From: Eledone cirrhosa
Lineage: Eukaryota
Reading direction: 5' to 3'
DNA length: 64,000 bases
NCBI GenBank assembly: GCA_964016885.1
Contig: OZ024742.1
Location: forward strand, 52,266,001 to 52,330,000
Shown here piece by piece: positions 1 through 32,954 of this stretch (position 1 is the stretch's first letter; each line of letters starts with the position of its first letter). Under the pieces are notes generated by a model. The model was given only the letters and a program-made list of their open reading frames with translations. It ran no database searches and was not told the DNA's origin. Made by a program: the position numbers and the translations under genes.

Positions 1-3000
1 CCAGAATCTCCGGAGCACAGGCTTTCGCACCGATCTTCGGCGGCTACGATGTGGGCGCATCTCCCAGCCGTCCGGGATCGGGGGGAGGAGTTGCTGTGCT
101 TTTTCGGAGAGTTTTGGATCTTGCCATACGGGCCATCTTCCTGGACCCAGAAGGTAAGATGGGGGTGCTGGACGTGACCAGCGGAGACGGCCAAGCTTTC
201 AGGTTAGTGGCCGTCTATGCCCCGACAGGAGCAGGGCGGCCTGATTTCTTCCGGCGTCTGGAGACCTTTCTTGGAACGTCCCGCTCTTTAGTGTTAGTGG
301 GCGACTGGAACGGGATCTTAGATGCACGCTGGGATTGTGTGGGATTAGTGGATAGGGAACGAGGGTGCAAGAGTCTCACCAACCTGCTCAGACGTTTTGA
401 ACTGTCTGACAGGTACCGAATGGATTTCCCGAATGTACCAATGTGGACTTGGACAAATCGCATAGGGTCATCCAGATCATATCTAGATAGAGTATTTTGT
501 AGGGAAATAGATAGGTCTAGCATAGGCTGTCCACAATTCAAGATAGTCAGCTACACGGACCACAAATTCGTGTTCTGTGTGCTTGACTTAGATAGGCTTC
601 ATAGACGAGGACCCGGCTACTGGAAGCTAAACGCGTCCTTACCAGCACACAAGGCCTACAGAGACCGGATTAGCGAACTAGTTAAGCGGGCGTTGACGGG
701 GGCCATCGTCAACAACAAGTGGTAGTTTGCTCTGAAAAGAGCAATTAGAATAGAGTCCATTAGGTTTAGTAAGACTTTAGCAATAGAGAAAAATAGAGCA
801 GAGGGAGAATTAGTTAGAAAATTAGATGAGGCGCTTAGCAAAGGCATCGCGACCGACGTACTTGCGGCGAAATTGGCCCTTGACCAATTCTTCAATGCAA
901 AGCACGAAGGCTGCGTTGTCAGAGCTAGGGTGCGTGCTCTCAGACACGAGGGGACGAAAGCCGTTCAATGGGCCCGAGTGGCGGAGGCGCGTCGTGGCAA
1001 CAAAGCCACGATCCGGTCTTTGGTGGACCACGACGGGCGCATGCTACTCGATCCCGAGCAAATGTGTGAAGCTTTTCAGCGACATTTCACTCAACTGTTC
1101 GGGGGCAGTGGCGGGCCGGATGGAGAGATGGACTTTAGTGTCTACCTCGACGGACTGCCGCGGCTTTCGGCCACTGAGGCGGAGTGTTGCGAAAAGCCGA
1201 TAACAACCGCTGAAGTACGGGATGCAATGACTAGTTGCACAAGGGGTAAATCGCCTGGTTTGGATGGTCTGCCCTATGAACTTTACGTACAAATGCCAAA
1301 ATTGTTCGGAGGCCTCTTGGCGGACGTCTACTGCAACTGGCAACAGAACGGGAGAATTCCCAGTTCTGTGAGCCGAGGACCGGTGGCACTGCTGAGAAAG
1401 GATCCGAACAAGGGGGATAACATAGACAATTTCCGGCCCATAACTCTGCTAAACACAGAGTTCAAGATTTTGGCCAAGGTGCTAGTAAAGAGGTTGGCGC
1501 TTGTCGTTGGTGGTCTGGTGGGAGAGGCACAGACATGCGCCATTCCCGACAGATCCATTCACGACAACCTCCACCTCATGCGATACATCGTAGAGAGGGT
1601 AGCTAGGAACCTGGCACGGGTGGGTCTTTGATCAATTTAGATCAGTCAAAAGCCTTCGATAGGGTCGACCATCGTTACCTAGCGGCAGTCCTGAGGGCGG
1701 CTGGCTTTGGGCCCGTCTTCAGAGACTGGATCGCTGCCATGCACAGCGACATCTGCTCTGTAGTGAGAGTGAACGGTCACCTTTCGGAACCGTTCAACAT
1801 CATGCGCTCGGTCCGCCAAGGATGTCTTCCCGTCCCTCTTCAGGGGGGTCCCGCGCGAACTAGGATGCGGTAGATCCGTGTCAGCTATGCGGACGATGTC
1901 ACCGTAGTGGTGTCTAACGCCAAACACATCGAGGCGATCGGCACTACACTAAGAGAATACCAAACGGTGACAGGAGCAATTTATCAACCAGGAAAAGTCA
2001 GTGGGCCTGCAGCTCGGCACCTGGAGAGCAGGTCCATGCCGTCCAAACAGCGTCGTCGGGCGCTTGACGGACGGACCGGTTAAATTGCTAGGGGTCTGGT
2101 TCGGTGCGGACCTCCAGACGGACAAAAACAGGGACGAGGTGACGAGCAGGGTGGCTTCTCTCACCCAGAAATGGGCCGAGAGGTAGCTATCCCTGAAAGG
2201 TCGAGCGGAGGTGGCTAACGCGTACATCGCGCCCGTCATCTACTACCGCCTGACCGTCGTACCTTGTCCTAAGCTCCGCCTGACTGCGCTGGAGCGTTTG
2301 CTCTTTCGCTTCTTGTGGAAGGGACGCGCTCCGATGGTCAGGCGGTCCATCTGCTGTCAACACCCGCTACGTGGAGGGCTGGGCATGCCGTGGCTGATGA
2401 TGCGCAGACACGCGCTCAGGCTACGACATCTCCACCTCTTCCTCGACGGTGATCAGGTGTGGTCGCCGTTTGCTAGACACGTTTTTCCCCAGCTCATCTC
2501 CTTGACGGAGCTGCAGTCGTGGGTCAAGCGAAGACCGAGAGGGACCGCTTGGAGACTGGAATGTCTTCAGGCGCTCACAGCCCTCGACCAATCGGGCAAT
2601 GTGATCGGTGGAAACTGCACCTTGGCGTTCTATAGGGGATTAGTGGAAGGGAAGAGCGGCGACGTACTTGGAGAAACTCTAGGCGTCGACGAAAATCAAC
2701 TAGCCAATCTCTTCGGAAGGACTTTCGGGCCGGGGCCTATGGACAACTTCCAGAAATCCTTGGCCTGGCAGTGCTAGCGAGGACTTTGCCAGTTCGGGAT
2801 AAACACGACAGGCATCGTCAGCCGGGCATGTCCGAGATGCACGCAGCGCGACGAAACCGTCCTGCACGCACTCGTCCAGTGTCCGAGCATTGCTGACTTG
2901 TGGGTTTATGTCGAACACCTGCTGTAACGTGTAGGACGGATCCAGCTATCAGCTGAGTCCATCGTGAGGATTGCCCCGCCCTCTTCCTTTAGCCGGGAAG

Positions 3001-3506
3001 GGCAGGCAGTTTTTATCTGTCTGGTGGCCATGGCGAAAGAGATAGTATGGTGGACACGTTTGAAAGGGCTGAAGACGAGCACTTACCTCTTCGGTGATGC
3101 CCTGATTAACTTTTTCAAATTTCATTTGAAAAGGAAAATCAGGGTAGAGAGGGAAGTGCTCTCTTCCCAGCATTTTGTTGAAAGATGGGTGAGAGAAGCA
3201 AGTATGGCTCGAATGAATGGGCCTTCTCTGAGTATGTGTCTGTAAATTAAAGGTGGAAAACTGGGAGAGGGCACTTGCCCTGGTGGTCAGGGCCACTGTG
3301 GTCTTTTAATGGGCTTTCTCCACAAATGTCCCTTGGAAGTCTCCCCCCTATTGGGGAATTTTTCTTTGTTATTTTATTTCAACCTCTGTTTTTTTACACG
3401 CAGAAATGCCCATTTGTACCGTCCTGTATTGTCCTGTACTGTCCTTAATGTCTACTTTATGTGAACCCTTGTGGTTAATAAAGAAAACATTATTATTATT
3501 ATTATT
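1..3506 (+). mobile_element. Tx1/L1-clade non-LTR retrotransposon copy 1 (5' part outside window; ORF2 broken by stops and frameshifts)
   Basis: ORF fragments give APE endonuclease (VYAP, GDWN, YLDR, TDH), RT (SPGLDG, FRPITLLN, DQSKAFDRVDH) and C-terminus; AATAAA at 3477, (ATT)n tail 3489-3506. The C-terminus (ASMARMNGPSLSMCL) matches copy 8, so it is probably type B. Confidence 0.93.
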
Positions 3507-3722
3507 GAATGCCATGGTTGACGGAGGCTCGGCTCTGTAAGGTATAGTAATTTTTAACCGTTAAATCAATTGTAAATTGTTTAAAACTTGAACCAAATTG
3601 TTGATAAAGACACCCTCCTCCTCGTGAGAGGGGTCTTTCTGTCCGTTATTTGGCCCTTCGGGGTTAAATAACCAGTTATTGGGGTTTTGTACCCAAAATT
3701 TCATTTTAAACAGAAAAACAAC

Positions 3723-5830
3723 ATGGCTACGAAAAAGAAATTTCATACGTCACTCCCACTCATTCCGTCTTCTTCTTCCTCAATCATCACTACAGCAGAG
3801 AGAAGATTGTCTCTCTCCCTCCCTTCTTTAAATGTGTCTCTCTCCCTCCCTTCTCTTTCGCAAGTGACGAAAGAAAAAAAAAGTCTCGTGCAAAGCGTGC
3901 AAGGTTTCTCCACGACGACGACGACAGCGACGAAACAGGTGTGCGGGAAATACGAAAACCCAGTTCATTCGTCTGACGTCAGGAATAATAGCAGTAGCAG
4001 CCGTAATAACAACAGCAACAGTGACAATGAAAACAACAGTAGCAGCCGCAACAGCATCACCAGCAGCATAAACAACAACAGCATTAGCAGCAGCAACACC
4101 AACAACAACCACAGCAACAGCGGCGGAGGCAGTAGTCGTAGTACCTGCAGCTACAACAAAAGTACCAGCAGCTCTGACGACAACAACAAAAGCAGAGAAA
4201 AACCAATCTCATTTGCAGGTATTGCGAAAAACTTGGAAACAATCCTCATAACAAATGAGGAATTAGAGGAAGCGAAGAAGATGGTGACAAAGAACGGACA
4301 CCGAGCAATCTGCAAGGCAGCGGAAAAATTTTTCGAAACCCAAGAGCACTGTACGGTCACGTACCGTACAGTAAGTACAAAATCCCGTAGGGTGGAAAGA
4401 GCCACAGAGGCCCAAATACAAAAAGCCTTGGGGTCTGTGTGGCAGCGGAAAACGCACATCACCCGAGGCAAAAAATATGCCACCGTAGACGTACTTTTTG
4501 CCACACCCCAGGAGGCAAAGGCCCAATCAGTAGTGACCCTAAGGAGCGAGGAAATGGTGTTGGTGCCCTCCTACTGCGGGCAAAAAATTGTGAGGGTCAA
4601 TCTGACCCACGTCCCCCCCCCCCCCCCCCCGGAATGACCCCTTCTTGGCTGGCCACGTCTGTCCACGTCGGAATCGAGGACAAAACAACTGTACTGCAAG
4701 TACAGAAAAAAATAAGAGAAGATTGGGTCGGCTCCTCCATTGAGATGCTAATCCAAACCAACCAGGAGTGCATCGAAGCTATCCCGGATGTGATAGACTT
4801 CGATAACGGCATACAACTGCCCATAAGTGTTGAGGGAAAACGCCCGAAATGCTTTCGCTGTGGATCGAAGACTCACCTCAGGGCCTTCTGCAACGAGAAG
4901 ACCCTGAGAAAGGAGAAAACCCCCCTCCTTCCGAATCCGGCTCCACGGCTACCAGCAACAGGACAAGCGGCAACCAGAAACGATAGGTCCGTGGCACCCA
5001 TACCCACTCCACGGAAATCAAAAACAGCAGCAGCAGTGGAAATATTAACAACAACAACAGCAATACCAAATGCAGCTGCAACAGAGACTCCAGTGCAAAC
5101 ATCACCAACAACAACAAGTGAAAGAGTGGAGCTGGTACCCCTCCCCGACCTCACAGAATCAGACATGGAGTGTGAGGTGGGAGAGGGATGGCAAAAGGTC
5201 GCAAGAAGGCACAAACGCAGAAGCAGCGCATCGTCGCCTTTGAAAAGGGAGGAAAGAAATGAGAAAAGGGTAAAGTCTACTGCAAAGAGACCCACAGCAG
5301 CAAAACCACCAACACCATCACCACCCACACCAGCACCACCATCACCACCGGCGACAACCCCACCGCCAACAACACCTTCAACACCACCACCACAAGCACC
5401 AACATCGCAAACACAACAACAAAACACACACACCCAGCAACAACGACAAGAAAATAGCAGAACCACACCCCACCCCCAGAAAAACAAATGCACGGCAATA
5501 AACACACACAACAAGAAACTAATGACTTACATAATTGAACACACAGACATTTCACAACAGGACTACATAATACCAGCACCAATCAAAACGCCAACTAACA
5601 TAAGACTGCTAAAAATAGCACAGAAACAATACACAAACATTAAAACGAAATTCCCCAACGCAGTTGGTGATTTCAGGGACCTAGGAGGAACCATCAATCG
5701 AAGAGTATATTCAGACATTCTCTTAGAAGAGCCGACGACCAGCCGAAGGGACGATTCAACGGTCCCTTCACCAGACGATCAAGTGAAAAGGGATGTAAAA
5801 ACCATCCCTCCTCTACGAAAAGTACGGTAA
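3723..5830 (+). pseudogene. ORF1 type A (gag-like nucleic-acid-binding protein), frameshifted at an expanded C-run near 4613-4630
   Basis: MATKKKFHTSLP start, S/N-rich N-terminus, globular mid-domain, CX2CX4HX4C knuckle CFRCGSKTHLRAFC, Pro/Thr-rich linker, ends PPLRKVR*. Copy 5 reads through the C-run in frame. Confidence 0.88.
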
Positions 5831-5865
5831 GTGGTCTTTCCCATCTTTTCCACTCTATTTTAAAC

Positions 5866-8800
5866 ATGACCTCACTCAGAATAGGCAGCATAAATGCGCG
5901 TGGCTTGGGGTCGTCATGGAAGCAGGGTCACCTGCTCAACGCCCTCAGGTCACTAAACATAGATGTAGTGGCCATCAGCGAGACCAGAATCTCCGAAGCA
6001 CGGGCATTCGCACCGATCTTCGGCGGCTACGATGTGTACGCATCTCCCAGCCGTCCTGGATCGGGTGGAGGAGTTGCTGTGCTTTTTCGGAGAGGTTTGG
6101 ATCTCGCCATACGGGCCATCTTCCTGGACCCAGAGGGTAAGCTGGTGGTGCTGGACGTGACCAGCGGAGACGGGCAAGCTTTCAGGCTAGTGGCCGTCTA
6201 TGCCCCGACAGGAGCAGGGCGGCCTGATTTCTTCCGGCGTCTGGAGACCTTTCTTGGAACGTCCCGCTCTTTAGTGTTAGTGGGCGACTGGAACGGGATC
6301 TTAGATGCACGCTGGGACTGTGTGGGATTATCGGATAGGGGTGGAGGGTGCAATAGCCTCACCAACCTGCTCAGGCGTTTTGAACTGTCTGACAGGTACC
6401 GATTGGATTTCCCGAATGTGCCAATGTGGACTTGGACAAACCGCATAGGGTCATCCAGATCATATCTAGATAGAGTATTTTGTAGGGAAATAGATAGGTC
6501 TAGCATAGGCTGTCTACAATTCAAGATAGTCAGCTACACGGACCACAAATTCGTGACCTGTGTGCTTGACTTAGATAGGCTTCATAGACGAGGACCCGGC
6601 TACTGGAAGCTAAACGCGTCCTTACCAGCGCGCAAGGCCTACAGAGACCGGATTAGCGAACTAGTTAAGCGGGCGTTGACGGGGGCCATCGTCAACAACA
6701 AGTGGTGGTTTGCTCTGAAAAGAGCGATTAGAATAGAATCGATTAGGTTTAGTAAGGCTTTAGCAATAGAGAAAAATTGAGCAGAGGGAGAACTAGTTAG
6801 AAAATTAGACGAGGCGCTTAGCATAGGCATTGCAACCGACGTGCTTGCGGCGAAATTGGCCCTTGACCAATTCTTCAATGCAAAGCACGAAGGCTGCGTT
6901 GTCAGAGCTAGGGTGCGTGATCTCAGACACGAGGGGACGAAAGCCGTTCAATGGGCCCGAGTGGCGGAGGCGCGTCGTGGCAACAAAGCCACGATCCGGT
7001 CTTTGGTGGACCACGACGGGCGCATGCTACTCGATCCCGGGAAAATGTGTGAAGCTTTTCAGCGACACTTCGCTCAGCTGTTCGGGTGCAGCGGGGGGCC
7101 GGGTAGAGGGATGGACTTTAGTGTCTACCTCGACGGACTGCCGCGGCTCTCGGCCACTGAGGCGAAGTGTTGCGAAAAGCCGATAACAGCCGCTGAAGTA
7201 AGGGAGGCAATGACTGGCTGCACAAGGGGTAAATCGCCTGGTTTGGATGGTCTGCCCTATGAACTTTACGTACAGATGCCAGACTTGTTCGGAGGCCTCT
7301 TGGCGGACGTCTACTGCAACTGGCAACAGAACGGGAGAATTCCCAGTTCTGTGAGCCGAGGAGCGGTGGCACTGCTGAGAAAGGATCCGAACAAGGGGGA
7401 TAACATAGACAATTTCCGGCCCATAACTCTGCTAAACACAGAGTTCAAGATTTTGGCCAAGGTGCTAGCAAAGAGGTTGGCGCTTGTCGTTGGTGGTCTG
7501 GTGGGAGAGGCGCAGACATGCGCCATTCCCGACAGATCCATCCACGACAACCTCCACCTCATGCGATACATCATAGAGAGGGTAGCTAAGGAACCTGGCA
7601 CGGGTGGGTCCTTGATCAATTTAGATCAGTCGAAAGCTTTCGATAGGGTCGACCATCGTTACCTAGCGGCAGTCCTGAGAGCGGCTGGCTTTGGGCTCGT
7701 CTTCAGAGGCTGGATCGCTGCCATGCACAGCGACATCTGCTCTGTGGTGAGAGTGAACGGTCACCTGTCGGAACCGTTCAACATCATGCGCTCGGTCCGC
7801 CAAGGATGTCCCCTCTCGTCCCTCTTGTACGTATTGACTCTCGAGCCATTACTGCACAAACTGGAGACGTTGAGGGGAGTCCCGCGCGAACTAGGATGCG
7901 GAAGATCCGTGTCAGCATATGCGGACGATGTCACCGTAGTGGTGTCGAACGCCAAACACATCGAGGCGATCGGCACTACACTAAGAGAATACGAAGCGGT
8001 GACAGGAGCAATGATCAACCAGGAAAAGTCGGTGGGCCTGCAGCTCGGCACCTGGAGAGGCAGGTCCATGCCGTCCAACAGCGTCGTCGGGCGCTGGACG
8101 GACGGACCGGTTAAATTGCTAGGGGTCTGGTTCGGTCCGGACCTCCCGACGGACAAAAACTGGGACGAGGTGACGAGCAGGGTGGCTTCTCTCACCCAGA
8201 AATGGGCGGAGAGGAAGCTATCCCTGAAAGGTCGAGCGGAGGTGGCTAACGCGTACATCGCGTCTGTCATCTGCTACCGCCTAACCGTCGTACCTTGTCC
8301 TAAGCCTCGCCTGACTGCGCTGGAGCGTTTGCTCTTTCGCTTTTTGTGGAAGGGACGTGCTCCGATGGTCAGGCGGTCCATCTGTTGTCAACACCCGCTA
8401 CGTGGAGGGCTGGGCATGCCGTGGCTGATGATGCGCAGGCACGCGCTCAGGCTACGACATCTCCACCTCTTCCTCGACGGTGATCAGGTGTGGTCGTCGT
8501 TTGCTAGACGCGTTTTTCCCCAGCTCGTTTCCTTGACGGAGCTGCAGTCCTGGGTCAAGCGAAGACCGAGAGGGAGCGCCTGGAGACTGGAATGTCTTCA
8601 GGCGCTCACAGCCCTCGACCAATCGGGCAATGTGATCGGTGGAAACTCCACCTCGGCGTTCTATAGAGGATTAGTGGAGGGGAAGAGCGACGACGTACTT
8701 GGGGAAACTCTAGGCGTCGACGAAAATCAACTAGCCAATCTCTTCGGAAGAACTTTCGGGCCAGGGCCTATGGACAACTTCCAGAAATCTCTGGCCTGGC

Positions 8801-9285
8801 AGTACTACCGAGGAGCCTTGCCAGTTCGGGATAAACTCTACAGGCATGGAGGTGCCGTCAGCCGGGCATGTCCGAGATGCGCGCAGGGCGACGAAATTGT
8901 CCTGCAAGCACTCGTCCAGTGTCCGAAAATTGCTGACTTGTGGGTTTATGTCGAACACCTGCTGTCGCGTTTAGGACGGATCCGGCTATCATCTGAGTCC
9001 ATCGTGAGGATTGCCCCGCCCTCCTCCTTTAGCCGGGAAGGGCAGGCAGTTTTTATCTGCCTGGTGGCCATGGTGAAAGAGATAGTGTGGTGGACACGTT
9101 GGAAAGGGCTGAAGACGAGCACTTACCTCTTCGGTGATATCCTGATTAACTTTTTCAAATTTCATTTGAAAAGGAAAATCAGGGTAGAGAGGGAAGTGCT
9201 CTCTTCCCAGCATTTTGTTGAAAGATGGGTGAGAGAAGCAAGAATGGCCCGAGTGAATGGGCCTACTCTGAGTATATATCTGTAA
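5866..9285 (+). pseudogene. ORF2 (APE endonuclease - reverse transcriptase - zinc finger), ~1139 codons with one in-frame stop at 6778-6780
   Basis: ORFs 5866-6780 and 6841-9285 are in the same frame; the stop TGA is AGA in other copies. Motifs SINARGL, SET, GDWN, QGCPLS, YADD, LLGV and a degenerate CPRC..CP finger. Confidence 0.93.
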
Positions 9286-9533
9286 ATTAAAGGTGGAAAA
9301 CTGGGAGAGGGCACTTGCCTTGGTGGTCAGGGTCATTGTGGCTTTTTACTGGGCTTTCTCCACAAATGTTCCTCCGAAGTTTGCCCCCTATTGGGGAATT
9401 TTTCATTGTTATTTTTTGTTACATCCTCTGTTTTTGTTTTTTACACGCAGAAATGCCCATTTGTACCGTCCTGCATTGTCCTGCACTGTCCTTAATGTCT
9501 ACTTTATGTAAACCCTTGTGGTTAATAAAGAAA

Positions 9534-9589
<56 letters not shown>

Positions 9590-12500
9590 GGCGACCTACG
9601 TAGTAAATCGTATCATCGTAAGCTCCGCAAAGGTATGTTATTTTTAGTTGTTTAAAATTGCCATTTATGGAAATTTTTTTATTGTTAACTCTATATAAGT
9701 GCACATACATTGATTTCTGAAAAGGACACTCAAAAAGATTGGGGCCATGAGCCCAAAATTTGAATTTTTATAATTATCAAACAAAATAAATGTTGTTTGA
9801 AAAATCATGGCCGACTCAAAGTCACACCTTCCTCACAAACTAACACCACACGACGACACCACCATTGTAAATATGACTACGTTTGCCAACACTAAAAATA
9901 TAAGCAGTAGCAATATTTTAAATTTGTCTCAGGCAGACATCTATTTCCCGCCATTACCAATGACTGCAGGTGTTAAAGCCGCCACCCCCACCTCAACCAC
10001 AGCGACAACAGAAACAAAAGAAAGAAAAAAATTAACTCGTGATATCGAAATGAATTCAACCAAAATGAACTCTTCCACACCGAACACCACTGACGCCACC
10101 ACCACCACAACTGAAACTAAAATTAGCAATAACAAAAATAACGATAACAGCAACAATGAAATTAAGAAAACCACCCTGAGTTTTGCTAGAGTAGCAAAAC
10201 AGTGCGAAGCATTTCAGGTAACTCAGGAGGAATTAGAAGAAGACAAAAAAATGGTAAAGAAAGATGGGTACAGGGTCAGCCTCACCCCCCACCTAATAAA
10301 ATGGAGCATCGGCGCCAATGCACCGTGTCTTATCGAAAAATTAACATAAAATCTCGCCGAGTGGAACGGGCATCCGAGTCCCAAATCCAAAAAGCTTTGG
10401 GACATGTGTGGGCAAAAGAAACCCATATAAGACGTGGGCAGAAATATGGAACCGTGGACATGTTCTTTGAAACACGACAGGAGGCTAGAGAACACTCCAT
10501 GGCCCCATTAAGAAGTGACGACTTCACACTCGTCCCAAGCTATTGTGGCCACAGACTCGTAAAGATCAGGGTAATCCATGTTCCACCGGCCATCGAAATT
10601 CCCTGGCTAATAGCTACCGCCCACGCCGGCATCAAAGCCAACACCAAGATAATCGAAATAGCGACAGAAAAGCAGGAGAACTGGTCCGGATCTGGGATGG
10701 AGCTCCTGATTCAAGCGGACCCAAAAAGCATTGAGGTGATCCCAGGGGTAATAGACCTCACTGACGGTAGCCACCTCACCGTAATCGTCGAGGGTAGAAG
10801 GCCTACGTGTGTCGTTTGTGGTGAAGGAACCCACCTAAGGACTTTCTGCCCTCAGGCTAAAAGGTTGAGGCCACCTCTCTTACCCACCCCAGTGACTCAA
10901 CCATCAACGCCACCAGCAGCAAAGATGGCAGCAACAGCTGTAGCAGCAACAACAGAAGCAACTATAACAGCAACAACCGCAGCAACAGTAGCAAAACCAA
11001 CACCACCACCATCCAACGCTTCAGAACTAGCACCAGCGCCTACACCATCCACCACGCCACAACCAAAACTAACGCCTGTGGAGGATGTTCCACTCCCCGG
11101 CCTATCATAACTGGAGACAGATTGTGACGACGAGGAGTGGGAAACGGTATCAGGAAAAAAGAAAAAAAGAAACCAAAAAAGAAAAAATTATCTCCCCCCC
11201 CCCCCCAAACAAAATACAGAGGGAAACAAATAAACTATCAAACAAAAAGGTTAGGACAGATATGCCACCATCCACATCAGCATCACCACAAACACCAACA
11301 CCATCACCATCATTAACCCCAACACCACCATCACCATCACCACAAAAGTCACCAAAAAGCGAAACAGAAACAAAGCCACAACAAACGCAAACAAAACAAA
11401 ACAACCAAAACGATACACACTACACAGCATTAAATTTGAACAATAACCAATTATTACACTACATCCAACACAACACCAGCATCACAGAAAAAGACTACAC
11501 AACAACCCAAAAGTTGACACCACCTCCACACATACAAATCACTCGCATCACACAGAAAACGTACACGGCACAAAAGCAAAAAAATCCCCAAAGACATCGG
11601 AGACTTCCGACAAGCACTCTCCAGGAGGATTTATAAGGACATCCTTCCTGAGGAGGCCACAAGCAGTGAAAAGGATGGAAAAACCGTCCTTCCCCTACGA
11701 GAAGTAAGGTAAGTGGTCTTTCCCATCTTTTCCACTCCTTTCAACATGACCTCACTCAGAATAGGCAGCATAAATGCGCGTGGCTTGGGGTCGTCATGGA
11801 AGCAGGGTCACCTGCTCAACGACCACAGGTCACTAAACATAGATGTAGTGGCCATCAGCGAGACCAGAATCTCCGAAGCACGTGCCTTCGCCTTCATAGA
11901 CGAGGACCCGTCCACTGGAAGCTAAACGCGTCCTTACCAGCGCGCAAGGCCTACAGAGACCGGATCAGCGAACTAGTTAAGCGGGCGTTGACGGAGGCCA
12001 CCGTCAACAACAAGTGGTGGTTTGCTCTGAAAATAGCGATTAGAATAGAGTCCATTAGATTTAGTAAGGCATTAACAATAGAGAAAAATAGAGCAGAGGG
12101 AGAATTAGTTGGAAAATTAGACGAGGCGCTTAGCAAAGTCATCACGACCGATTCTTCAATGCAAAGCACGAAGGCTGCGTTGTCAGAGCTAGGGTGCGTG
12201 CTCTGATACACGAGGGGACGAAAGCCATTCAATGGGCCCGAGTGGCGGAGGCTCGTCGTGGCAACAAAGCCACGATCTGGTCTTTGGTGGACCACGACGG
12301 TCGCATGCTACTCGATCCCGGGCAAATGTGTGAAGCTTTCCAGCGACACTTCGCCCAGCTGTTCGGGGGCAGCGGCAGGCCAAATTGAGGGATGGACTTT
12401 AGTGCCTACCTCGATGGACTGCCGCGGCTCTCGGCCACTGAGGCGAAGTGTTGCGAAGGTGGAAAACTGGGAGAGGGCACTTGCCTTGGTGGTCAGGGTC

Positions 12501-12697
12501 ACTGTGGCCTTTTACTGGGCTTTCTCCACAAATGTCCCTCGGAAGTCTCCCCCCTATTGGGAAATTTGTTCATTGTTATTTTTTTATTACATCCTCTGTT
12601 TTTTTTACACGCACAAATGCCCATTTGTACCGTCCTGTGTTGTCCTGTACTGTCCTTAACGTCTAATCTATGTAAACCCTTGTGGTTAATAAAGAAA

Positions 12698-12728
<31 letters not shown>
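9590..12728 (+). mobile_element. Tx1 copy 3, ORF1 type B, ORF2 internally deleted (non-autonomous)
   Basis: 5' end GGCGACCTACGTAG is shared with 52565 and 54888. ORF1 MADSKSHLPHKL with CVVCGEGTHLRTFC knuckle. ORF2 jumps at ~11890 (EN), ~12150 and ~12457 (straight into the 3'UTR). Tail 12700-12728. Confidence 0.92.
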
Positions 12729-15700
12729 GGCCGCACATGTGTGAAGACAGTACAAATCTGCGGGGGAAAAGGTTCGTAACTTTAAGCTGTTTTAAAGTGT
12801 CATTTTTTGTATTTTCTTGTCGTTAACGAAACTTAAGGTACACATCTTGATTTAAAGAGAGGGATACCTCTCAATATTCGGGCTTTAAGCCCGAATATTC
12901 AGATTTATTTTTAAAAACTTCGAAAAAAATCACTTCCTCACCAAAAGAAACTTATGGAAATGTTCGACCGTGAAACGGTAAACAACGTTCAGGTCAAAAG
13001 TTTAACAGCAGCCACTGTAGATTTCACCACGACTACGACGGCTACAGTCATGCCTGTCATCCACTCTACTGAATGTGAAGGCAAAACTCAACCTTCTGTG
13101 ATAGCAGCAGTATCATCTGAAAACGACATCACCACCACCGCCACCACCACCACCACAACAACAACAACTCAGAGCAATAACGACAATAACACCAACAGCT
13201 TCAATGTAAACAAGGATGGCGGTGGCAACACCAATAACAACAGCAAGAATGACAACAACAACAATAAGAGCATCAGAAACACCACATTTGCTGCAGCAGC
13301 AGCAAAAACAAAGCGCTTATTGAATATTGATATTGATATTAGCGATAAAGACGAACAGTTGGCCAATGCGTGGAGGCTAATTAAACGGGAGAAGTCCTGG
13401 GCAAACCTGACCATCCCGGACGCGGCAATAGCGGCCATGCAAAGGAGGACGGTGTTCTTTCGATGTATTTCGGTGCAGACACGAAAAGTGGAACTTGCGA
13501 GCCAAGCAGAGGTAGAGGCTGCTTTGGAGTACATCGGAATTAACATAGAGTACAAAGCAAGAGGCAAACAGTTCGGTACCATCTCGGTACTGTTCAAAAC
13601 CGAGGCCCTCGCTATTAAGCACTCGGTGACCCCCTGCAGAACGGAACGCATTATCATGCATCCATCCTATATGGGTAAAAGGACATTGAAGGTACGCATT
13701 CCCAGTATCCCACCAGGAATGAACATATGGTGGCTGCTGGGATGCGTAATCGAGGAGGGGACAGACACTACTCTCCTGGACATCAAAAGGACAGAGAGAG
13801 AGGACTGGTCCGGAATGGATTTGGAGATTCTTCTCCAAATGAAACCGGAGGATATGAATAACATCCCGGATTTTGCCCGCCTGCAGGACGGGACAACAAT
13901 CCAACTAATGATTGACGGAAGAAGGCCACGCTGCTTCGTCTACGGGGAAGCAACGCATCTTCAAGCCTTCTACCCTCAGCGCAAAAATGCAGGGGGTCGC
14001 AAACCTCCTTTGTTGCCAACGCCAGTGTAAGCACGGAAAGCTGCACCACCACCACCACCAAAAACAACATCAACAAAAACACGGACACCAACATCAAAAG
14101 CAGCCGGATCACCACCAACACCAAAACCAATCCAAGGAGAAAACGAGGAAAGCTCCCCCCAAAAAATTATACACATAGACAAAACAATAAACGCACACAC
14201 AGACACAGAGACACTCACAGACACAGACCCTTTATCTTCCAGCAGCGAAGATGAAGGAAAACCCAAAAGTGCAAAAAAACAGAAAACTCACAAAAAAAAA
14301 AAGCCCCAACAAAACACAAAAACACACACAACAAAAAATACAGACACCACTAACGCAAACACTTCCCCAATAACATCATCACCAACAGCAACATCGACAC
14401 CACCTCCACAATCCCCGAAACGCAAACAACCTAAACAAACACAAGTACAAATAAACACACAAATACCTGAAATTTCAGACACCACACCTACAACAAACAT
14501 AGACATACCCGAAACAACACCACCAAAACCATCGCCACCACCTTCATCAAAACGAAAACAAATAAAACCACACCAACAAAATGTTAAAAACTTCGTGCTT
14601 GTCAGAAGGGCCAACGATAAACTGATGGCCCACTTAGCGCGAAGCGAGGACATTCAAACAGAGGGGGAGATTTTTGAAATCAGCACATTTTGCGTGCTAG
14701 AAGATTTGCTTCTGGTCCGAATGTCACTCAATTCCTTCAAAGAAATTCGAGAGAGCTTTCCTCAAGACGTGGGAACCCCGAATGTGAAACCCACATCAAG
14801 ACTTTTAAAGGGGTTCCCAAAAGAAACCCCACCAACCATGGAGGTCGAACCACCCGACCTTCACAAGACCCGGGAGGTAAGTAAACCTTCCCTCTCTCTC
14901 TCTTAGCTTACCAATATGGCCATATTAAGAGTAGGAAGTTTAGATGTTCGCGGCCTGGGGTCACCCTGGAAGGAGGGTCGCCTGCTCAACGACTTCCGGT
15001 CGCTGGAAATGGATGTAATTGCCGTAAGCGAGACCAGAATTTCCGACACGCGCGCACTAGCCCCCATTTTCGACGACTATCAGATCTTCGCATCTGTTAG
15101 CAGGCCGGGAATGGGAGGTGGGGTGGCAGTGCTGTTTAGGAAAGGACTGGAACTCGAGGTAAGGTCGATCTTCCGGGACCCGGAAGTTGGTGGTCTTGGA
15201 TGTGAGCAGTAGCGAAGGTGGTGCCTTTAGAATGCTGGCCGTCTACGCCCCTACAGGGGCCGGACGACCTGACTCATTTAGGCGCCTGGAGACCTTTCTG
15301 GGTACGTCTCGCCCTTTACTGTTAGCGGGGGACTGGAATGGCATCTTAGACGCACGCTGGGATTGTGTGGGAGTAGCCGATAGGAGCGGGGGGTGCAAAA
15401 GCCTCAAGGACCTACTCAGACAGTTCAAATTGTCTGACAGGTATCGACTAGATTTCCCCAATGTGCCAGTAAGGATATGGACCAACCGAATGGGGGTCAT
15501 CTAGATCGTATATAGACAGGATCTTTATTAGGAAAATAGATAGAAATAGTCTGGGCTGTCCACTTTTTAAAACGGTCGCCTATTCAGATCACAAATGTGT
15601 GATCTGTACGGTCGACCTAAATAAAACGCGTAGGTTAGGACCGGGTTATTGGAAGCTAAACATGTCATTTCCGGCACGTAAGGCTTACAGGGACCGAGTC

Positions 15701-18634
15701 AACAATTTAGTTAAGCAAAAGTTGACAGGGGGGATCATCAACAACAGATGGTGGGTGGCTCTCAAAAGAGAGATTAGAGTAACTTCGATAGAGTTCAGCA
15801 AAGAACTAGCGTTAGAGAAAAATAGAAAGGAGGGGGAGCTGGTAGATAAGTTAGACGAGGCTATTTGTAGTGGCATCGCAACTGACGTGCTAGCGGCGAG
15901 AATGGCATTAGACCATTTCTTCAATGCCAAACACGAAGGTTGCATTGTCAGAGCTAAGGCGCGTGCGCTGAGAAACGAGGGAACTAAAGATGTTCGATGG
16001 GCCCGCGTGGCGGAGGCGCAGCGTAGTAATAAAACCACAATTGGGTCGTTGGCGGACCGAGACGGACACGAGATAAGCGATTCCAAGCGGATGTGTGAGG
16101 CCGTTCGCCAGCACTTTGCTCGATTGTTCAGAGAGAGTGGCGAGTCAGAGAGATTAGCGGATTTCAGTCCCTACCTTGACGGCTTGAGGCGCATCTCGAC
16201 GGTCGACGCTGAGCGCTGCGAAAGGCCGATTACTTCAGCCGAAATTCAGGACGCCCTTGTCGGCTGCATGAGGCGCAAGTCACCCGGTTTGGATGGCCTG
16301 CCCTACGAGCTTTACGTACATATGCCAGACTTGTTCTCCGAACTCCTCGAAGCACTCTACTGCAACTGACAGCAGAATGGGAGTATTCCCAGTTCTGTGA
16401 GATCAGGGGAGTGGTGACGCTGATAAGGAAAGACGAGTACAAGAGGGATACATTAGACAACTTCAGGCCCATAACTCTGCTCAACACAGAGTTTAATATT
16501 TTGACCAAGGTGTTAGCAAAGAGATTGGCGCTTGTCGTCGAGGATTTGGTTGGGGAGGCGCAAACTTGCGCAATCCCAGCCAGGTCCATACACGATAATC
16601 TCCACCTCATGCGATACATCATAGAGAGGGTAGGGTGTAAACCTGGCCTCGGTGGGGCACTGATCAATTTAGATCAATCGAAAGCATTCGATAGGGTTGA
16701 CCATCGGTATCTGGAGTTTGTCCTCAAAGCAGCTGGCTTCGGCTCTGTCTTTAGAACCTGGATCGTTGCAATGCACAGCGACACATGCTCGGTGGTCAAG
16801 GTTAATGGCCACCTCACGGAAACATTTCGGCTCTCCCGATCGGTCCGTCAAGGGTGCCCTCTCTCTTCCCTTCTGTACGTATTGACTCTCGAGCCTTTAC
16901 TGCGGAAGCTGGAGCTGTTGCAGGGCATCCCGCTCGAACTGGGACGTGGAAAGGCGGTGTCGGCTTATGCAGACGACATCACTCACCGTGATGGTGTCAA
17001 ACACCTCAGAAATCGAGATGGTCGGCACCTTATTGAAGGAATATGAAAAGTTGACAGGAGCCAAACTTAACCCGGAAAAGTCGGTGGGCTTGCAGCTCGA
17101 AACCTGGAGAGGCAAGCTCATGCCGTCCAACAGCGTCGTGGGGCGCTGGACGGACGGGCCGGTAAAGTTGCTCGGGGTTTGGTTCGGACCAGACCTCCAG
17201 GTGAAAAAGAATTGGGACGAGGTAACGAGCAGAGTAGCCAGTCTCACCCAAATATGGGCTGGGAGGAAGCTATCACTGAAAGGTCGCGCGGAGGTGGCGA
17301 ATGCGTACATCGCGTTCGTCATCTACTAACGCGTGACCGTCGTGCCTTGCCCCCGTCCGCGCCTCGTCAAGCTGGAACGGCTCCTCTTCAAATTCTTGTG
17401 GAGGGGACAAGTTCCGTTGGTGAGGCGGTCCATCTGCTGCCAGCACCCTCTACGCGGAGGGCTGGGCATGCCGTGGCTAATGATGCGCAGACATGCGTTG
17501 AGGCTGCGAGATCTCCAGATATTCTGCCTCAACGGTGAACAGGTGTGGTCGCCGTTTATCAGACTTTCCGCAGCTCATTTCTTTGACGGAGCTGCAGTCC
17601 TGGGTCAAGAAGAGACCGAGACTGGGTGACTGGCACCTGGAATGTTGCCAGGCACTCACTGCCCTCTACCAAGCGGGCAATGCGATCAGTGGAACTTCCA
17701 CTCTCGAGTTCTATAGAGGATTAGTGGTGGGCAAGTGCGGTGACGCACTCGGAGAAGCTTTGGGCCTCGACGAAGTCGAACTGACCAGTCTGTACCGGAG
17801 GACTTTTGAGCCGGGGACGATGGACAATTTCCAGAAATCCCTCGCTTGGCAGTGCTACCGGGGGGCACTGCCGGTTCGGGATAAACTCTACAGGCACGGA
17901 AGTGCTGTCAGAAGGACCTGCCCAAGATGCGCACAGAACGACGAAACCGTTCTGCACGCACTTGTCCAATGTCCGTGCATTACTGACTTGTGGAGTTATG
18001 TCGAACAGTTACTGTCGCGTGTGGAACGAATCCGGCTATCGGCCGAGTCCATAGTGAAGATCGATCTACCGCCTTAGGTCAGGAAGAGCAGGAAATGTTC
18101 CTCTGTCTGGTGGCAGTTGCTAAAGAGATTATATGGTGGACCAGGTTGAAAAGACTAAAGACAGACACTTTTCTCTTCGGCCAATCCCTCATCAACTTCT
18201 TCAAGTTTCACCTGGAAAGAAAGGTGAGGGCGGAGAGAGAAGTGCTGCCCCCCCTCCCCAGTACATTTGCTAAAAGGTGGGTGAATGTGGGGAGAATGGC
18301 TCGTGTGAATGGGCCTACTCTGACCATGCGCCTATAGGCTGGCTAACTTGAGGAGAGGGGTGCTCTCCCTGGGTGCCCTAGAAGCGCAGGGTGGTTCAGG
18401 ATTGGTGGGGTACCTGAAGCACCCCAGGGTCGTACACCCCCTATCGGGGAATTTATTTTGTTATATTTATGCATAGTTTATTTTATATTTTTATATTTTC
18501 ATTGTTAAATTAGTCTTGCCATTGTGCACTTTTGCTCCACCTTATTGTAAACACCCACTGTCCCTGTCTTTGTATTGTCCCCTACATGTCGGCCCTGGTG
18601 GCCAATAAATGAAATCATTATTATTATTATTATT
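12729..18634 (+). mobile_element. Tx1 copy 4, divergent family C, full length, degenerate
   Basis: Distinct 5'UTR; ORF1 12954-14906 with degenerate knuckle CFVYGEATHLQAFY; ORF2 14916-18337 in pieces (GDWN, SPGLDG, YADD, CPRC..HALVQCP); distinct 3'UTR; tail 18617-18634. Confidence 0.92.
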
Positions 18635-21600
18635 GAATGCTATGGTTGACGGAGGCTCGGCTCTGTAAGGTATTGTAAATTTTGAACGCTATAACAATTG
18701 TAAATTGTTTAAAACTGTAACGAACTTGTAGACAAAAACACCCTTCTCCTCGTGAGAGGGGTCTTTCTGCCCGTTATTTGGCATATCGGGGTTAAATAAC
18801 TGCTTATTGGGGTTTTGTGCCCAATATTTATTTTAAACAAAAAAAACAACATGGCTACGAAAAAGAATTTTCATAGGTCACTCCCACTCATCCCGTCTTC
18901 TTCTTCCTCAATCACTACAGCAGAGAGAAGATTGGCTCTCTCCCTCCCGTCTTTAAATGTGTCTCTTTCCCTCCTTTCTCTTTCGCAAGCGACGACAAAA
19001 AAGAAAAGTCTCGTGCAAAGCGTGCAAGACTTCTCGACGACGACGACGACAACGACGAAACAGGTGTGCGGGAAATACGAAAACCCATTTCATTCGTCTG
19101 ACTTCGGGAATAATAGCAGTATCAGCCGTAATAACAACAGCAACAGTGACAATGAAAACAACAGTAGCAGCCGAAACAGCATCACCAGCAGCATAAACAA
19201 CAACAGCATTAGAAGCAGCAACACCAACAACAACCACAGCAACAGCGGCGGAGGCAGTAGTCGTAGTACCTGCAGCAACAACAAAAGTAACAGCAGCTCT
19301 GACGACAACAACAACAGCAGCAAAGAAAAACCAATCTCATTTGCAGGTATTGCGAAAAACTTGGAAACAATCCTCATAACAAATGAGGAATTAGAGGAAG
19401 CGAAGAAGATGGTGACAAAGACTGGACATCGAGCAATCTGCAAGGCAGCGGAAAAATTTTTCGAAACCCAACAGCACTGTACGGTCACGTACCGTACAGT
19501 AAGTACAAAATCCAGTAGGGTGGAAAGAGCCACAGAGGCTCAAATACAAAAAGCCTTGGGGTCTGTGTGGCAGCGGAAAACGCACATCACCAGAGGCAAA
19601 AAATATGCCACCGTAGACGTACTTTTTGCCACACACCAGGAGGCAAAGGCTCAATCCGTAGTAACCCTAAGGACCGAGAAAATGGTGTTGGTGCCCTCCT
19701 ACTGCGGGCAAAAAATTGTGAGGGTCAAACTGACCCACGTCCCCCCCGGGATGGCCCCTTCTTGGCTGGCCTGGTCTGTCCTCGTCGGAATCGAGGACAA
19801 AACAACTGTACTGCAAGTACAGAAATAAGTAAGAGAAGATTGGGTCGGCACCTCTATTGAGATGCTAATCCAAACCAACCAGGAGTGCATCGAAGCTATC
19901 CCGGATGTGATATACTTCGATAACGGCACTCAACTGCCCATACGTGTTGAGGGAAAACGCCCGAAATGCTTTCGCTGTGGATCGAAGACTCACCTCAGGG
20001 CCTTCTGCAACGAAAAGACCCTGAGAAAGGAGAAAACCCCCCTCCTTCCGAAACCGGCTCCACGGCTACCAGCAACAGGACAAGCGGCAACCAGGAACGA
20101 TAGGTCCGTGGCACCCATACCGACGCCACGGAAATCAAAAACAGCAGCAGCAGTGGAAATATTAACAACAACAACAGCAATACCAAATGCAGCTGCAACA
20201 GAGACTCCAGTGCAAACATCACCAATAACAACAAGTGAAAGAGTGGAGCTGGTACCCCTTCCCGACCTCACAGAATCAGACATGGAGTATGAGGTGGGAG
20301 AGGGATGGCAAAAGGTTGTAAGAAGGCACAAACGCAGAAGCAGCGCATCGTCGCCTTTGAAAAGGGAGGAAAGAAATGAGAAAAGGGTAAAGTCTACTGC
20401 AAAGAGACCCACAGCAGCAACACCACCAACACCATCATCACCCACACTAGCACCACCATCACCACCGGCGACAACCCCACCGCCAACAACACCTTCAACA
20501 CCACCACCACAAGCACCAACATCGCAAACACAACAACAAAACACTCACACCCAGCAACAACGACAAGAAAATAGCAGAACCACACCCCACCCCCAGAAAA
20601 ACAAATGCACGGCAATAAATACACACAACAAGAAACTAATGACTTACATAATTGAACACAGACATTTCACAACACGACTACATAATACCAGCACCAATCA
20701 AAACTCCAACTAACATAAGACTGCTAAAAATAGCACAGAAACAATACACAAACATTAAAACGAAATTGCCCAACGCAGTTGGTGATTTCAGGGACCTAGG
20801 AGGAACTATCAATCGAAGAGTATATTCAGACATTCTCATAGAAGAGCCGATGACCAGTCGAAGGGACGATTCAACGATCCCTTCACCAGACGATCAAGTG
20901 AAAAGGGATGTAAAAACCATCCCTCCTCTACGAAAAGTACGGTAAGTGGTCTTTCCCATCTTTTCCACTCTATTTTAAACATGACCTCACTCAGAATAGG
21001 CAGCATAAATGCGCGTGGCTTGGGGTCGTCATGGAAGCAGGGTCACTTGCTCAACGACCTCAGGTCACTAAACATAGATGTAGTGGCCATCAGCGAGACC
21101 AGAATCTCCGATGCACGGGCCTTCGCACCGATCTTCGGCGGCTACCATGTGTACGCATCTCCCAGCCGTCCTGGATCGGGGGGAAGAGATGCTGTGCTTT
21201 TTCGGAGAGGTTTGGATCTCGCCATACGGGCCATCTTCCTGGACCCAGAGGGTAAGCTGGTGGTGCTGGACGTGACCAGCGGAGACGGGCAAGCTTTCAG
21301 GCTACTGGCCGTCTATGCCCCGACAGGAGCAGGGCGGCCTGATTTCTTCCGGCGTCTGGAGACCTTTCTTGGAACGTCCCGCTCTTTAGTGTTAGTGGGC
21401 GACTGGAACGGGATCTTAGATGCACGCTGGAACTGTGTGGGATTAGCGGATAGGGAAGGAGGGTGCAAGAGCCTCACCAACCTGCTCAGGCGTTTTGAAC
21501 TGTCTGACAGGTACCGATTGGATTTCCCGAATGTGCCAATGTGGACTTGGACAAACCGCATAGGGTCATCCAGATCATATCTAGATAGAGTATTTTGTAG

Positions 21601-24597
21601 GGAAATAGATAGGTCTAGCATAGGCTGTCCACAATTCAAGATAGTCAGCTACACGGACCACAAATTCGTGATCTGTGTGCTTGACTTAGATAGGCTTCAT
21701 AGACGAGGACCCGGCTACTGGAAGCTAAACGCGTTCTTACCAGCGCGCAAGGCCTACACAGACCGGATTAGCGAACTAGTTAAGCGGGCGTTGACGGGGG
21801 CCATCGTCAACAACAAGTGGTGGTTTTTCTGAAAAGAGCGATTAGAATAGAATCCATTAGGTTTAGTAAGGCTTTAGTAATAGAGAAAAATAGAGCAGAG
21901 GGAGAACTAGTTAGAAAATTAGACGAGGCGCTTAGCAAAGGCATTGCGACCGACGTACTTGCGGTGAAAATGGCCCTTGACCAATTCTTCAATGCAATGC
22001 ACGAAGGCTGCGTGCTCTCAGACACTAGGGGACGAAAGCCGTTCAATGGGCCCGAGTGGCGGAGGCGCGTCGTGGCAACAAAGCCACGATCCGGTCTTTG
22101 GTGGACCACGACGGGCGCATGCTACTCGATCCCGGGCAAATGTGTAAAGCTTTTCAGCGACACTTCGCTCAGCTGTTCGGGGGCAGCGGTGGGCCGGGTC
22201 GAGGGATGGACTTTAGTGTCTACCTCGACGGACTCCCGCGGCTCTCGGCCACTGGGGCGAAGTGTTGCGAAAAGCCGATAACAGCCGCTGAAGTAAGGGA
22301 GGCAATGACTGGCTGCAGAAGGGGTAAATCGCCTGGTTTGGATGGTCTGCCCTATGAACTTTACGTACAGATGCCAGACTTGTTGGAGGTTTCTTGGCGG
22401 ACGTCTACTGCAACTGGCAACAGAACGGGAGAATTCCTAGTTCTGTGAGCCGAGGAGCGGTGGCACTGCTGAGAAAGGATACGAACAAGGGGGATAACAT
22501 AGCTAATTTCCGGCTCATAACTCTGCTAAACACAGAGTTCAAGATTTTGGCCAAGGTGCTAGCAAAGAGGTTGGCGCTTGTCGTTGGTGGTCTGGTGGGA
22601 GAGGCGCAGACATGCGCCATTCCCGACAGATCCACCCACGACAACCTCCACCTCATGCGATACATCGTAGAGAGGGTAGCTAAGGAACCTGGCACGGGTG
22701 GGTCCTTGATCAATTTAGATCAGTCGAAAGCTTTCGATAGGGTCGACCATCGTTACCTAGCGGCAGTCCTGAGGGCGGCTGGCTTTGGGCCCGTCTTCAG
22801 AGGCTGGATCGCTGCCATGCACAGCGACATCTGCTCTGTGGTGAGAGTGAACGGTCACCTGTCGGAACCGTTCAACATCATGCGCTCGGTCCGCCAAGGA
22901 TGTCCCCTCTCGTCCCTCTTGTACGTATTGACTCTCGACCCATTACTGCACAAACTGGAGACGTTGAGGGGCGTCCCGCGCGAACTAGGATGCGGATGAT
23001 CCGTGGCAGCATATGCGGACGATGTCACCGTAGTGGTGTCGAACGCCAAACACATCGAGGCGATCGGCACTAAACTAAGAGAATACGAAGCGGTGACAGG
23101 AGCAATGATCAACCAGGAAAAGTCAGTGGGCCTGCAGCTCGGCACCTGGAGAGGCAGGTCCATGCCGTCCAACAGCGTCGTCGGACACTGGACGGACGGA
23201 CCGGTTAAATTGCTAGGGGTCTGGTTCGGACCGGACCTCCAGACGGACAAAAACTGGGACGAGGTGACGAGCAGGGTGGCTTCTCTCACCCAGAAATGGG
23301 CGGAGAGATAGCTATCCCTGAAAGGTCGAGCGGAGGTGGCTAACGCGTACATCGCGTCTGTCATAAGCTACCGCCTGACCGTCGTACCTTGTCTTAAGCC
23401 TCGCCTGACTGCGCTGGAGCGTTTGCTCTTTCGCTTTTTGTGGAAAGGACGCGCTCCGATGGTCAGGTGGTCCATCTGTTGTCAACACCCGCTACGTGGA
23501 GGGCTGGGCATGCCGTGGCTGATGATGCGCAGGCACGCGCTCAGGCTACGACATCTCCACCTCTTCCTCGACGGTGATCAGGTGTGGTCGCCGTTTGCTA
23601 GACACGCATTTCCCCAGCTCGTTTCCTTGACGGAGCTGTAGTCCTGGGTCAAGCGAAGACCGAGAGGGAGCGCTTGGAGACTGGAATGTCTTCAGGCGCT
23701 CACAGCCCTCGACCAATCGGGCAATGTGATCGGTGGAAACTCCACCTCGGCGTTCTATAGAGGATTAGTGGAGGGGAAGAGCGACGACGTACTTGGGGAA
23801 ACTCTAGGCGTCGACGAAAATCAACTAGCCAATCTCTTCGGAAGAACTTTCGGGCCAGGGCCTATGGACAACTTCCAGAAATCTCTGGCCTGGCAGTGCT
23901 ACCGAGGAGCCTTGCCAGTTCGGGATAATCTCTACAGGCATGGAGGTGCCGTCAGCCGGGCATGTCCGGGCATGTCCGGGCATGTCCGAAAATTGCTGAC
24001 TTGTGGGTTTATGTCGAACACCTGCTGTCGCGTTTATGACGGATCCGGCTATCATCTGAGTCCATCGTAAGGATTGCCCCGCCCTCCTCCTTTAGCCGGG
24101 AAGTGCAGGCAGGTTTTTATCTGTCTGGTGGCCATGGCGAAAGAGATAGTATGTTGGACACGTTTGAAAGGGCTGAAGACGAGCACTTACCTCTTCGGTG
24201 AAGCTCTGATTGACTTTTTCAAATTTCATTTGAAAAGGAAAATCAGAGTAGAGAGGGAAGTGCTCTCTTCCCAGCATTTTGTTGAAAGATGGGTGAGAGA
24301 AGCAAGAATGGCCCGAGTGAATGGGCCTACTCTGAGTATATATCTGTAAATTAAAGGTGGAAAACTGGGAGAGGGCACTTGCCTTGGGGGGTCAGGGTCA
24401 TTGTGGCCTTTTAATGGGCTTTCTCCACAAATATCCCTCCGAAGTCTCCCCCCTATTGGGGAGTTTTTCATTGTTATTTTTGTTACATCCTCTGTTTTTG
24501 TTTTTTACACGCAGAAATGCCCATTTGTACCGTACTGTATTGTCCTGCACTGTCCTTAATGTCTACTTTATGTAAACCCTTGTGGTTAATAAAGAAA

Positions 24598-24656
<59 letters not shown>
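18635..24656 (+). mobile_element. Tx1 copy 5, full length, ORF1 type A, degenerate
   Basis: Collinear with copy 2 throughout; ORF1 18851-20945, ORF2 20981-24349 with stops and frameshifts; tail 24600-24656. Confidence 0.94.
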
Positions 24657-24843: not shown

Positions 24844-24849
24844 ATATAT

Positions 24850-32860: not shown

Positions 32861-32954
<94 letters not shown>

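Follow-up and report, generated by a model that had tools for sequence, protein, structure and literature searches.

Exchange of whole 5' modules between long interspersed elements (LINEs) is already known. In the mouse families L1MdTf and L1MdGf the 5' untranslated region (5'UTR) and the first open reading frame (ORF1) of one family are joined to the ORF2 and 3'UTR of another, with breakpoints in the 5' part of ORF2 (PMC3600994). In the CR1/L2 elements ORF2 has a tree-like history and ORF1 a reticulate one; it was proposed that an element truncated at its 5' end but complete in ORF2 is joined to the ORF1 of another (PMC4120745). Here we describe such a swap in Eledone cirrhosa, in a stretch of 64,000 nucleotides (nt) which we call the window (assembly GCA_964016885.1, contig OZ024742.1, positions 52,266,001–52,330,000, forward strand). 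By self-comparison we have found in it eight related plus-strand pieces of an L1/Tx1-like LINE; their positions, counted from the first letter of the window, are given in Table 1. Two families, A and B, share an ORF2 but differ in 5'UTR and ORF1; families C and D are outgroups. New in this case are the recent date of the swap, its resolution to the base, the deep divergence of the two ORF1s and the predicted hairpin, around the stop codon and a splice-donor-like motif, that bounds the swap.

The likeness to the mouse families includes the module swap, the amplified chimera, a young 3' end which recruits an older 5' end and the same three candidate mechanisms. As in mouse, the discordant histories of ORF1 and ORF2 come with a breakpoint common to several independent copies. 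However, the mouse parents are related families which can be aligned as DNA, whereas the ORF1s described here are saturated and have 48% amino acid identity. The GGTAAGT motif that holds the ORF1 stop begins 44 nt downstream of the break, the tail is doubled, and ORF1 contains RRM-like domains and a CCHC knuckle instead of the coiled coil-RRM-CTD (C-terminal domain) order. The CR1/L2 transfers also concern a whole type I ORF1, with RRM before the CCHC knuckle, but they were inferred between lineages from domain trees, without junctions: here the event is recent, the element is L1/Tx1-like, both products are found in one array and the junction is mapped.

A first-pass annotation of this DNA had proposed that the whole 5'UTR and ORF1 module was recently exchanged, and had named similar synonymous divergence in ORF1 and ORF2 as the result that would speak against it. 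The opposite is found. A sliding comparison of copy 2 (A) with copy 8 (B) gives 41–64% identity over the 5'UTR and ORF1, and 90–98% from 5807 onward, excepting two windows over a deletion in copy 8. The 5'UTRs cannot be aligned save for short motifs, also as proposed: in six pairs the local scores are 25–31, with shuffle maxima of 28–35 (the observed score is attained in 0–10 of 300 shuffles). The knuckles quoted for the two ORF1s are present as given. The ORF1s of A and B have 47.8% amino acid identity and a proportion of synonymous differences (pS) of 0.786 (95% range 0.70–0.88); 39 of 45 four-fold sites differ in the 232 alignable codons, so they are synonymously saturated. The ORF2s are about 95% identical, with a pS of 0.084 (0.06–0.10) and 40 of 530 four-fold sites different. 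Fast protein evolution alone is thus refuted: the modules have recombined.

The outgroups lead to the same result. The ORF1 of family D is 40% identical to A and 48% to B over 62–78 codons, as close as A and B are to each other, while its ORF2 differs from both by 20–21%. The ORF1 cores of A, B and C are mutually 37–42% identical. In a tree of the second RRM and the knuckle, which took in 57 of 149 homologues, a clade of A with B is unsupported (0.21), whereas the ORF2 tree groups them at 100% bootstrap against C and D. In the shared part the p-distances are 2.85% within A, 4.8–5.2% between A and copy 8, 6.0–6.6% for copy 3, 20–21% for family D and 26–27% for family C. Each combination was said to occur in several copies. 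This is true of two for A and two for B, one of them complete: copy 7 has no ORF2, and two stretches are deleted inside the ORF2 of copy 3. An assembly error does not account for the A junction, since the junction is found in both A copies and is spanned by a 1412-nt contig of an independent run (X4, positions 4470–5892, 17 different letters).

The switch had been placed in the last ~10 codons of ORF1, near the donor-like motif. It is indeed abrupt and close to the end of ORF1, but the change-point is at 5782 (5781–5785 within 2 log units), the same against both B copies, about 15 codons before the stop. Identity is 34% just before it, 84% over 5782–5825, 90–93% in the spacer and 96–97% at the ORF2 start. 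Past the conserved C-terminal motif A has 14 codons more than B and C, and 12 more than D: they are its own old tail followed by a B-like tail. In B the end of ORF1 is predicted to pair with the spacer in an RNA hairpin. In either B copy this hairpin is the predicted fold of lowest energy (z −3.7 and −3.2; 1–2 of 300 shuffles), and some 22 long-range pairs are expected. For A the long stem is predicted to lie 2 kcal/mol above the minimum, with 3.4 expected pairs; family C has a predicted short stem around its motif and family D has none. The 5' end of the predicted hairpin falls within a few bases of the change-point.

After the graft the two lineages descended separately. In the shared part 56 of 59 informative sites split copies 2 and 5 from copies 8 and 1, so the ORF2 variants track the 5' type: what is shown is a single event, not repeated interchange, and the first-pass description of interchangeable cassettes was overstated. 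The ORF2 codons fixed between these two pairs are 25 synonymous and 13 nonsynonymous, compared with 52 and 114 among those private to a single copy (Fisher p 1.5e-4). This synonymous excess shows that both lineages kept replicating under purifying selection. Copies of the same type share their start base and differ in their neighbours, as expected of independent insertions. An O. vulgaris calibration gives a distance of 0.065 for 18 million years (PMC13282606); if it applies, the graft would be roughly 4–7 million years old.

We consider that family A is a chimera, with a probability of about 0.6: an old, diverged 5'UTR and ORF1 would have been joined once to the 3' portion of a B-lineage element, from the last 15 ORF1 codons through spacer and ORF2 to the 3'UTR, by a template jump in target-primed reverse transcription. 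The direction is suggested by the double tail, the weaker predicted hairpin of A and the maximum likelihood tree, taken together: A is likely the newcomer, favoured about 3 to 1 in our own estimate. In the tree of the shared part copy 3 (B) stands beside A, and A is nested within B with 86% support. The 5'UTRs of two of the three B copies align with C (scores 51–52, 0 of 300 shuffles), those of A do not.

In such a jump, reverse transcription of a B-lineage RNA would start at the 3' end and proceed through ORF2 and then the junction hairpin. Having reached the 5' end of that hairpin, the cDNA would leave its template and continue on an A-type one, close to where the ORF1 of the latter ends, with a purine-rich microhomology (up to ~10 nt) at the join. 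The A-type template may have been a co-packaged RNA or a genomic copy whose (ATT)n tail was being inserted into. All six intact 5' ends in the window directly follow (ATT)5 or longer, and four of these repeats are the tails of neighbour copies, so the nascent cDNA would often be found just downstream of a related element. Only grafts which keep ORF1 stop, spacer and ORF2 start together would survive; this one likely did because they were kept together, which leaves ORF2 translatable from its own ATG. Template switching by the reverse transcriptase, already put forward in the first-pass annotation, remains the leading mechanism.

Several observations weigh against this reading. The trace at the junction is identical for a template switch on RNA, for annealing to a copy in the genome and for a deletion that joins tandem copies. 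The window contains a parent of the B lineage, and no A-type ORF1 still joined to its original ORF2 was found in it. Monophyly of B in ORF2 is not rejected (approximately unbiased (AU) test, p 0.154), the support for A within B drops to 76% on 808 shared columns, and the alignment of the copy 8 5'UTR with C is not significant (21 of 300 shuffles). The predicted hairpin was spotted after the fact and ranks 6 when copy 8 is scanned in 66 windows. At 84% identity the shared tail is more diverged than expected from the 96–97% at the ORF2 start, and ORF1 tail length differs among relatives (protein P0002 has a long one).

An origin at the DNA level is unlikely, yet it is the best of the other explanations. 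An A-type element and the B-type neighbour downstream of it would have lost, by deletion or unequal exchange, the ORF2 of the former and the ORF1 of the latter, and the fusion would then have retrotransposed. In 1–24599 there are indeed five copies of three families head-to-tail, with (ATT)6–19 between neighbours, copy 3 has two large internal ORF2 deletions with short or no homology at their ends, and a doubled tail with microhomology also fits. Recombination of DNA was discounted for L1 because most copies are dead (PMC3600994), and most copies in the window are broken too; nor is there a reason for a break at the hairpin end, except later selection.

Still less probable is a direction which is reversed or unsettled, with the B module as the newcomer and a tail of A lengthened later. 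The AU test and the variable tail lengths of relatives speak for it. However, an old tail followed by a B-like one is seen in A alone, B is colinear with C and almost colinear with D, the predicted hairpin fits B best, and the 5' modules of B are more diverse than those of A (6.6% against 3.5% in ORF1).

It is very improbable that the chimera arose at the GGTAAGT motif by splicing, or by read-through, from one array neighbour into the next, even though the motif is conspicuous. Among the GT sites on the sense strand of the A, B and C copies (131–314 in each) none is a better U1-like site. The distance from the motif to the ORF2 ATG is 39 nt in A, 37–38 nt in B and 39 nt in C (five of five copies), while the spacers of C align poorly with those of A and B; family D lacks the motif. 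Chimeras of LINE-1 made by splicing do exist (PMC13174262). In a spliced product the join would coincide with the donor and the sequence after it would be missing, as in spliced integrated retrotransposed elements (SpIREs) and spliced chimeras, whose junctions lie exactly at donor and acceptor with the intron lost (PMC5860796, PMC13174262). Here the identity begins 44 nt 5' of the motif, which both families have retained together with what comes after it, so that splicing, one of the routes suggested in the first-pass annotation, cannot have made the join. The absence of any swap, with a very fast ORF1 or an ORF2 homogenised by gene conversion, hardly deserves credit: ORF1 and 5'UTR do outpace ORF2 within types (5'UTR 12%, fast in both A and B; ORF1 3.5–6.6%; ORF2 2.7%; 5'UTRs compared at 3507–3722 and 18635–18850 for A, 9590–9806 and 54888–55096 for B), but ORF1 synonymous sites are saturated and the pS contrast refutes it, the transition is abrupt, ORF2 variation is tree-like rather than patchy, and the synonymous excess lies on the internal branch.

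The donor-like motif falls in different phases of ORF1 in A and B compared with C (position 14877), which points to a possible role at the nucleotide level. In family C, at 14875–14916, ORF1 and ORF2 lie in one frame, split by a single TAG; this TAG closes a pyrimidine tract and resembles a splice acceptor, 9 nt before the ORF2 ATG. Two splicing products were considered. An in-frame fusion of ORF1 and ORF2 through an intron of 51–53 nt fits the frame in four of four A and B copies, but not in C, where the donor is in another phase; we rank it low. No fused protein was found among three matches of 448–2000 amino acids, a small and weak sample, and 25 of 28 long ORF2 relatives start with Met at most 7 residues from the first endonuclease strand, as judged by eye. 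A splice to an acceptor-like site in the 3'UTR, which would remove ORF2, is unsupported: the acceptor motif is present in copies 1, 2, 5 and 8, mutated in copy 3 and not found in C or D. The C-termini of ORF1 relatives are compatible with the donor in two or three of the few full-length octopod-like matches (proteins only); a wider search returned the query alone.

The element has two ORFs, no long terminal repeats, an AATAAA signal and a simple-repeat tail: it belongs to the L1 group (L1/Tx1) of non-LTR retrotransposons of the APE type. The Tx1 label is one we presume from its architecture, and the 120 ORF2 matches listed, out of 603, include none named as a Tx1 reference. ORF2 matches PF03372 (E 8.6e-16, N-terminal APE endonuclease) and PF00078 (E 1.9e-28, reverse transcriptase). 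The zf-RVT match is weak (E 2.1e-5, 25.5 bits, just below the cut-off of 27.5), and this domain is precomputed on close relatives. The closest solved protein is human L1 ORF2 (E 7e-44), followed by R2 (E 4e-20), the sole LINE clades among the structure matches. Named relatives of both ORFs come from Octopus and Argonauta: those of ORF1 from Octopus sinensis, O. bimaculoides, O. vulgaris and Argonauta hians (9 of 20 proteins looked up), and the best named animal relative of ORF2 among the matches listed from Argonauta (68%). The relatives by themselves thus make an octopod host likely. Related loci were absent from the viral and metagenome contigs searched.

Type A ORF1 has a low-complexity N-terminus, two RRM-like domains, one CCHC knuckle, a Pro/Thr-rich linker and a conserved C-terminal domain; its RRM-like domains were assigned by homology to the folded core of type B. 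This core has a predicted fold with a mean pLDDT (predicted local distance difference test) of 85.8, in which two RRM-like domains precede the CCHC knuckle, and tandem-RRM proteins are its best structural matches. It is therefore a type I ORF1 in the scheme of PMC4120745. PF02994 (coiled coil-RRM-CTD) was not matched, so it is not a vertebrate L1 with a type II ORF1. No Rfam or tRNA match was obtained. Among the few 5'UTR motifs conserved in A, B and C there is a second donor-like one, AAG/GT (cut at the slash), about 35–45 nt from the 5' end (near 3541, 9633 and 12772). In public gene models P0011, P0053, P0071 and P0126 pieces of the ORF1 family are joined to unrelated host domains, probably annotation artefacts.

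In its flanks the element resembles Kibi, Koshi and the crocodilian (TTCC)n/(TTTC)n families of Tx1, APE-type LINEs found in microsatellites, but Kibi and Koshi insert into (TC)n or (TTC)n and here the flanks are (ATT)n. A Tx1 family is called target-specific when more than 20% of its flanks are of one sequence type (PMC4494074); for the present element the flank count comes from one window and includes the four neighbour tails. Since (ATT)n is also the element's own tail, arrays build up.

In run X1 the summed contig depth is 107–155 thousand in most A-specific bins, 121 thousand at 5517–5717 and 687 thousand at 5919–6119, with no steady rise towards the 3' end. Such a pattern fits if type A accounts for less than half of the 5' modules that this ORF2 family carries, but the depth is no copy number and includes relatives of at least 85% identity. 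Of 1072 joints in the reads aligned to 3507–9528, none of the 15 listed leaves from the donor-like motif; with no run recorded as RNA among 24, this carries no weight. Runs X22 and X20 covered 5 and 14 of the 30 bins of 3507–9528, mostly of low complexity, and were dropped. Runs of six coded organisms (A–F) hold at least half of the sampled words of 3507–9528; of these only X1 and X4 (organism A) were aligned. Contigs of X1 and X4 return from the 3' end to 9441 (9441–9528), which suggests that in some copies the final ~90 nt of the 3'UTR are duplicated in tandem.

The case shows a clean swap of promoter and ORF1 outside vertebrates and insects, with ORF1s 48% alike: the shared ORF2 works without the ORF1 with which it co-evolved. 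One ORF2 with two 5' modules is a natural pair for probing the turnover of ORF1 and 5'UTR: expression pattern, escape from PIWI-interacting RNAs (piRNA) and assembly of the ribonucleoprotein. Replacement of short 5'UTRs was not found in fish, frog and one lizard clade, according to PMC5381506, which makes a mollusc with short 5'UTRs a useful counterexample. In Octopus vulgaris there are 13 recently active L1-Tx1 families, in a survey whose main text does not contain the word 'ORF1' (PMC13282606); PMC9115989 concerns RTE and Dong elements. In the literature covered (Repbase, subscription journals and supplements being outside its scope) there was no account of the A/B family or its swap, nor of a donor motif that overlaps the ORF1 stop of a LINE.

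RNA structure near the ORF1–ORF2 junction can affect ORF2 translation in SART1, and PMC3894237 calls ORF2 translation an open question, on which the junction would bear if it is functional. It is conceivable, although we hold it doubtful, that the predicted hairpin, the U1-like motif over the ORF1 stop, the pyrimidine spacer and the ORF2 ATG at 37–39 nt form a cassette which controls ORF2 output and travels with ORF2. Insertion into each other's (ATT)n tails would then make the arrays a platform, where one ORF2 family repeatedly gains promoter and ORF1 modules from deeply diverged relatives.

Table 1. Copies and features of the LINE in the 64,000-nt window
Feature	Position	Strand	Remarks
Copy 1	1..3488	+	ORF2 and 3'UTR only; cut by window edge, 5' module outside; groups with copy 8
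Copy 2, type A	3507..9535	+	by sequence comparison
5'UTR of copy 2, type A	3507..3722	+	216 nt; starts right behind (ATT)6
ORF1 of copy 2, type A	3723..5830	+	frameshifted at poly-C run near 4612–4630
Own ORF1 tail of A	5735..5781	+	colinear with B tail as protein, not as DNA (16 of 47 columns; 107 of 1000 shuffles as good)
B-like ORF1 tail in A	5782..5830	+	37 of 44 columns match B; 0 of 1000 shuffles; change-point at 5' end
GGTAAGT donor-like motif	5826..5832	+	contains ORF1 stop codon; GT 39 nt before ORF2 ATG
Pyrimidine-rich inter-ORF spacer	5831..5865	+	3' arm of predicted junction hairpin
Shared ORF2 of copy 2	5866..9285	+	APE endonuclease, reverse transcriptase, C-terminal zinc-binding region; one in-frame stop 6778–6780
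Shared 3'UTR of copy 2	9286..9535	+	AATAAA near end; acceptor-like pyrimidine tract and CAG ending at 9450
(ATT)18	9536..9589	+	copy 2 tail, landing site of copy 3
Copy 3, type B	9590..12699	+	by sequence comparison
5'UTR of copy 3, type B	9590..9806	+	
ORF1 of copy 3, type B	9807..11712	+	frameshifts and stops; domain order as in A
Predicted RNA hairpin of B	11661..11741	+	ORF1 tail pairs with spacer; encloses stop codon and donor-like motif
ORF2 (internally deleted) and 3'UTR of copy 3	11746..12699	+	
Copy 4, family C outgroup	12729..18616	+	third ORF1; ORF2 26% from A and B
Copy 5, second full-length type A	18635..24599	+	junction same as copy 2
Copy 6, family D outgroup	~44800..48802	+	C-terminal part of fourth ORF1; ORF2 20–21% from A and B
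Copy 7, type B	52565..53354	+	790-nt 5' piece only; without ORF2
Copy 8, full-length type B	54888..60747	+	by sequence comparison

The window also contains other repeats. One of 200–230 nt with A-box- and B-box-like motifs, presumably related to short interspersed elements (SINE-like), occurs five times, at 24657–24847, 48841–48994 (minus strand), 60811–61040, 61047–61272 and 61395–61608 (minus strand); it has no ARAGORN or Rfam match, and in two cases it directly follows the (ATT)n tail of a LINE. A separate, broken element with a LINE-like reverse transcriptase, which we take to be RTE-like, is found at 49126–52440 on the minus strand, and a second fragment, also on the minus strand, right behind copy 7 (53355–54300). 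There are long inverted repeat pairs in 27158–31409 and 32947–37619 (931 nt at 97%; 500–550 nt at 89–93%) and a palindromic repeat of 176 nt at 62166–62351: they are possibly DNA transposons or miniature inverted-repeat transposable elements (MITEs).

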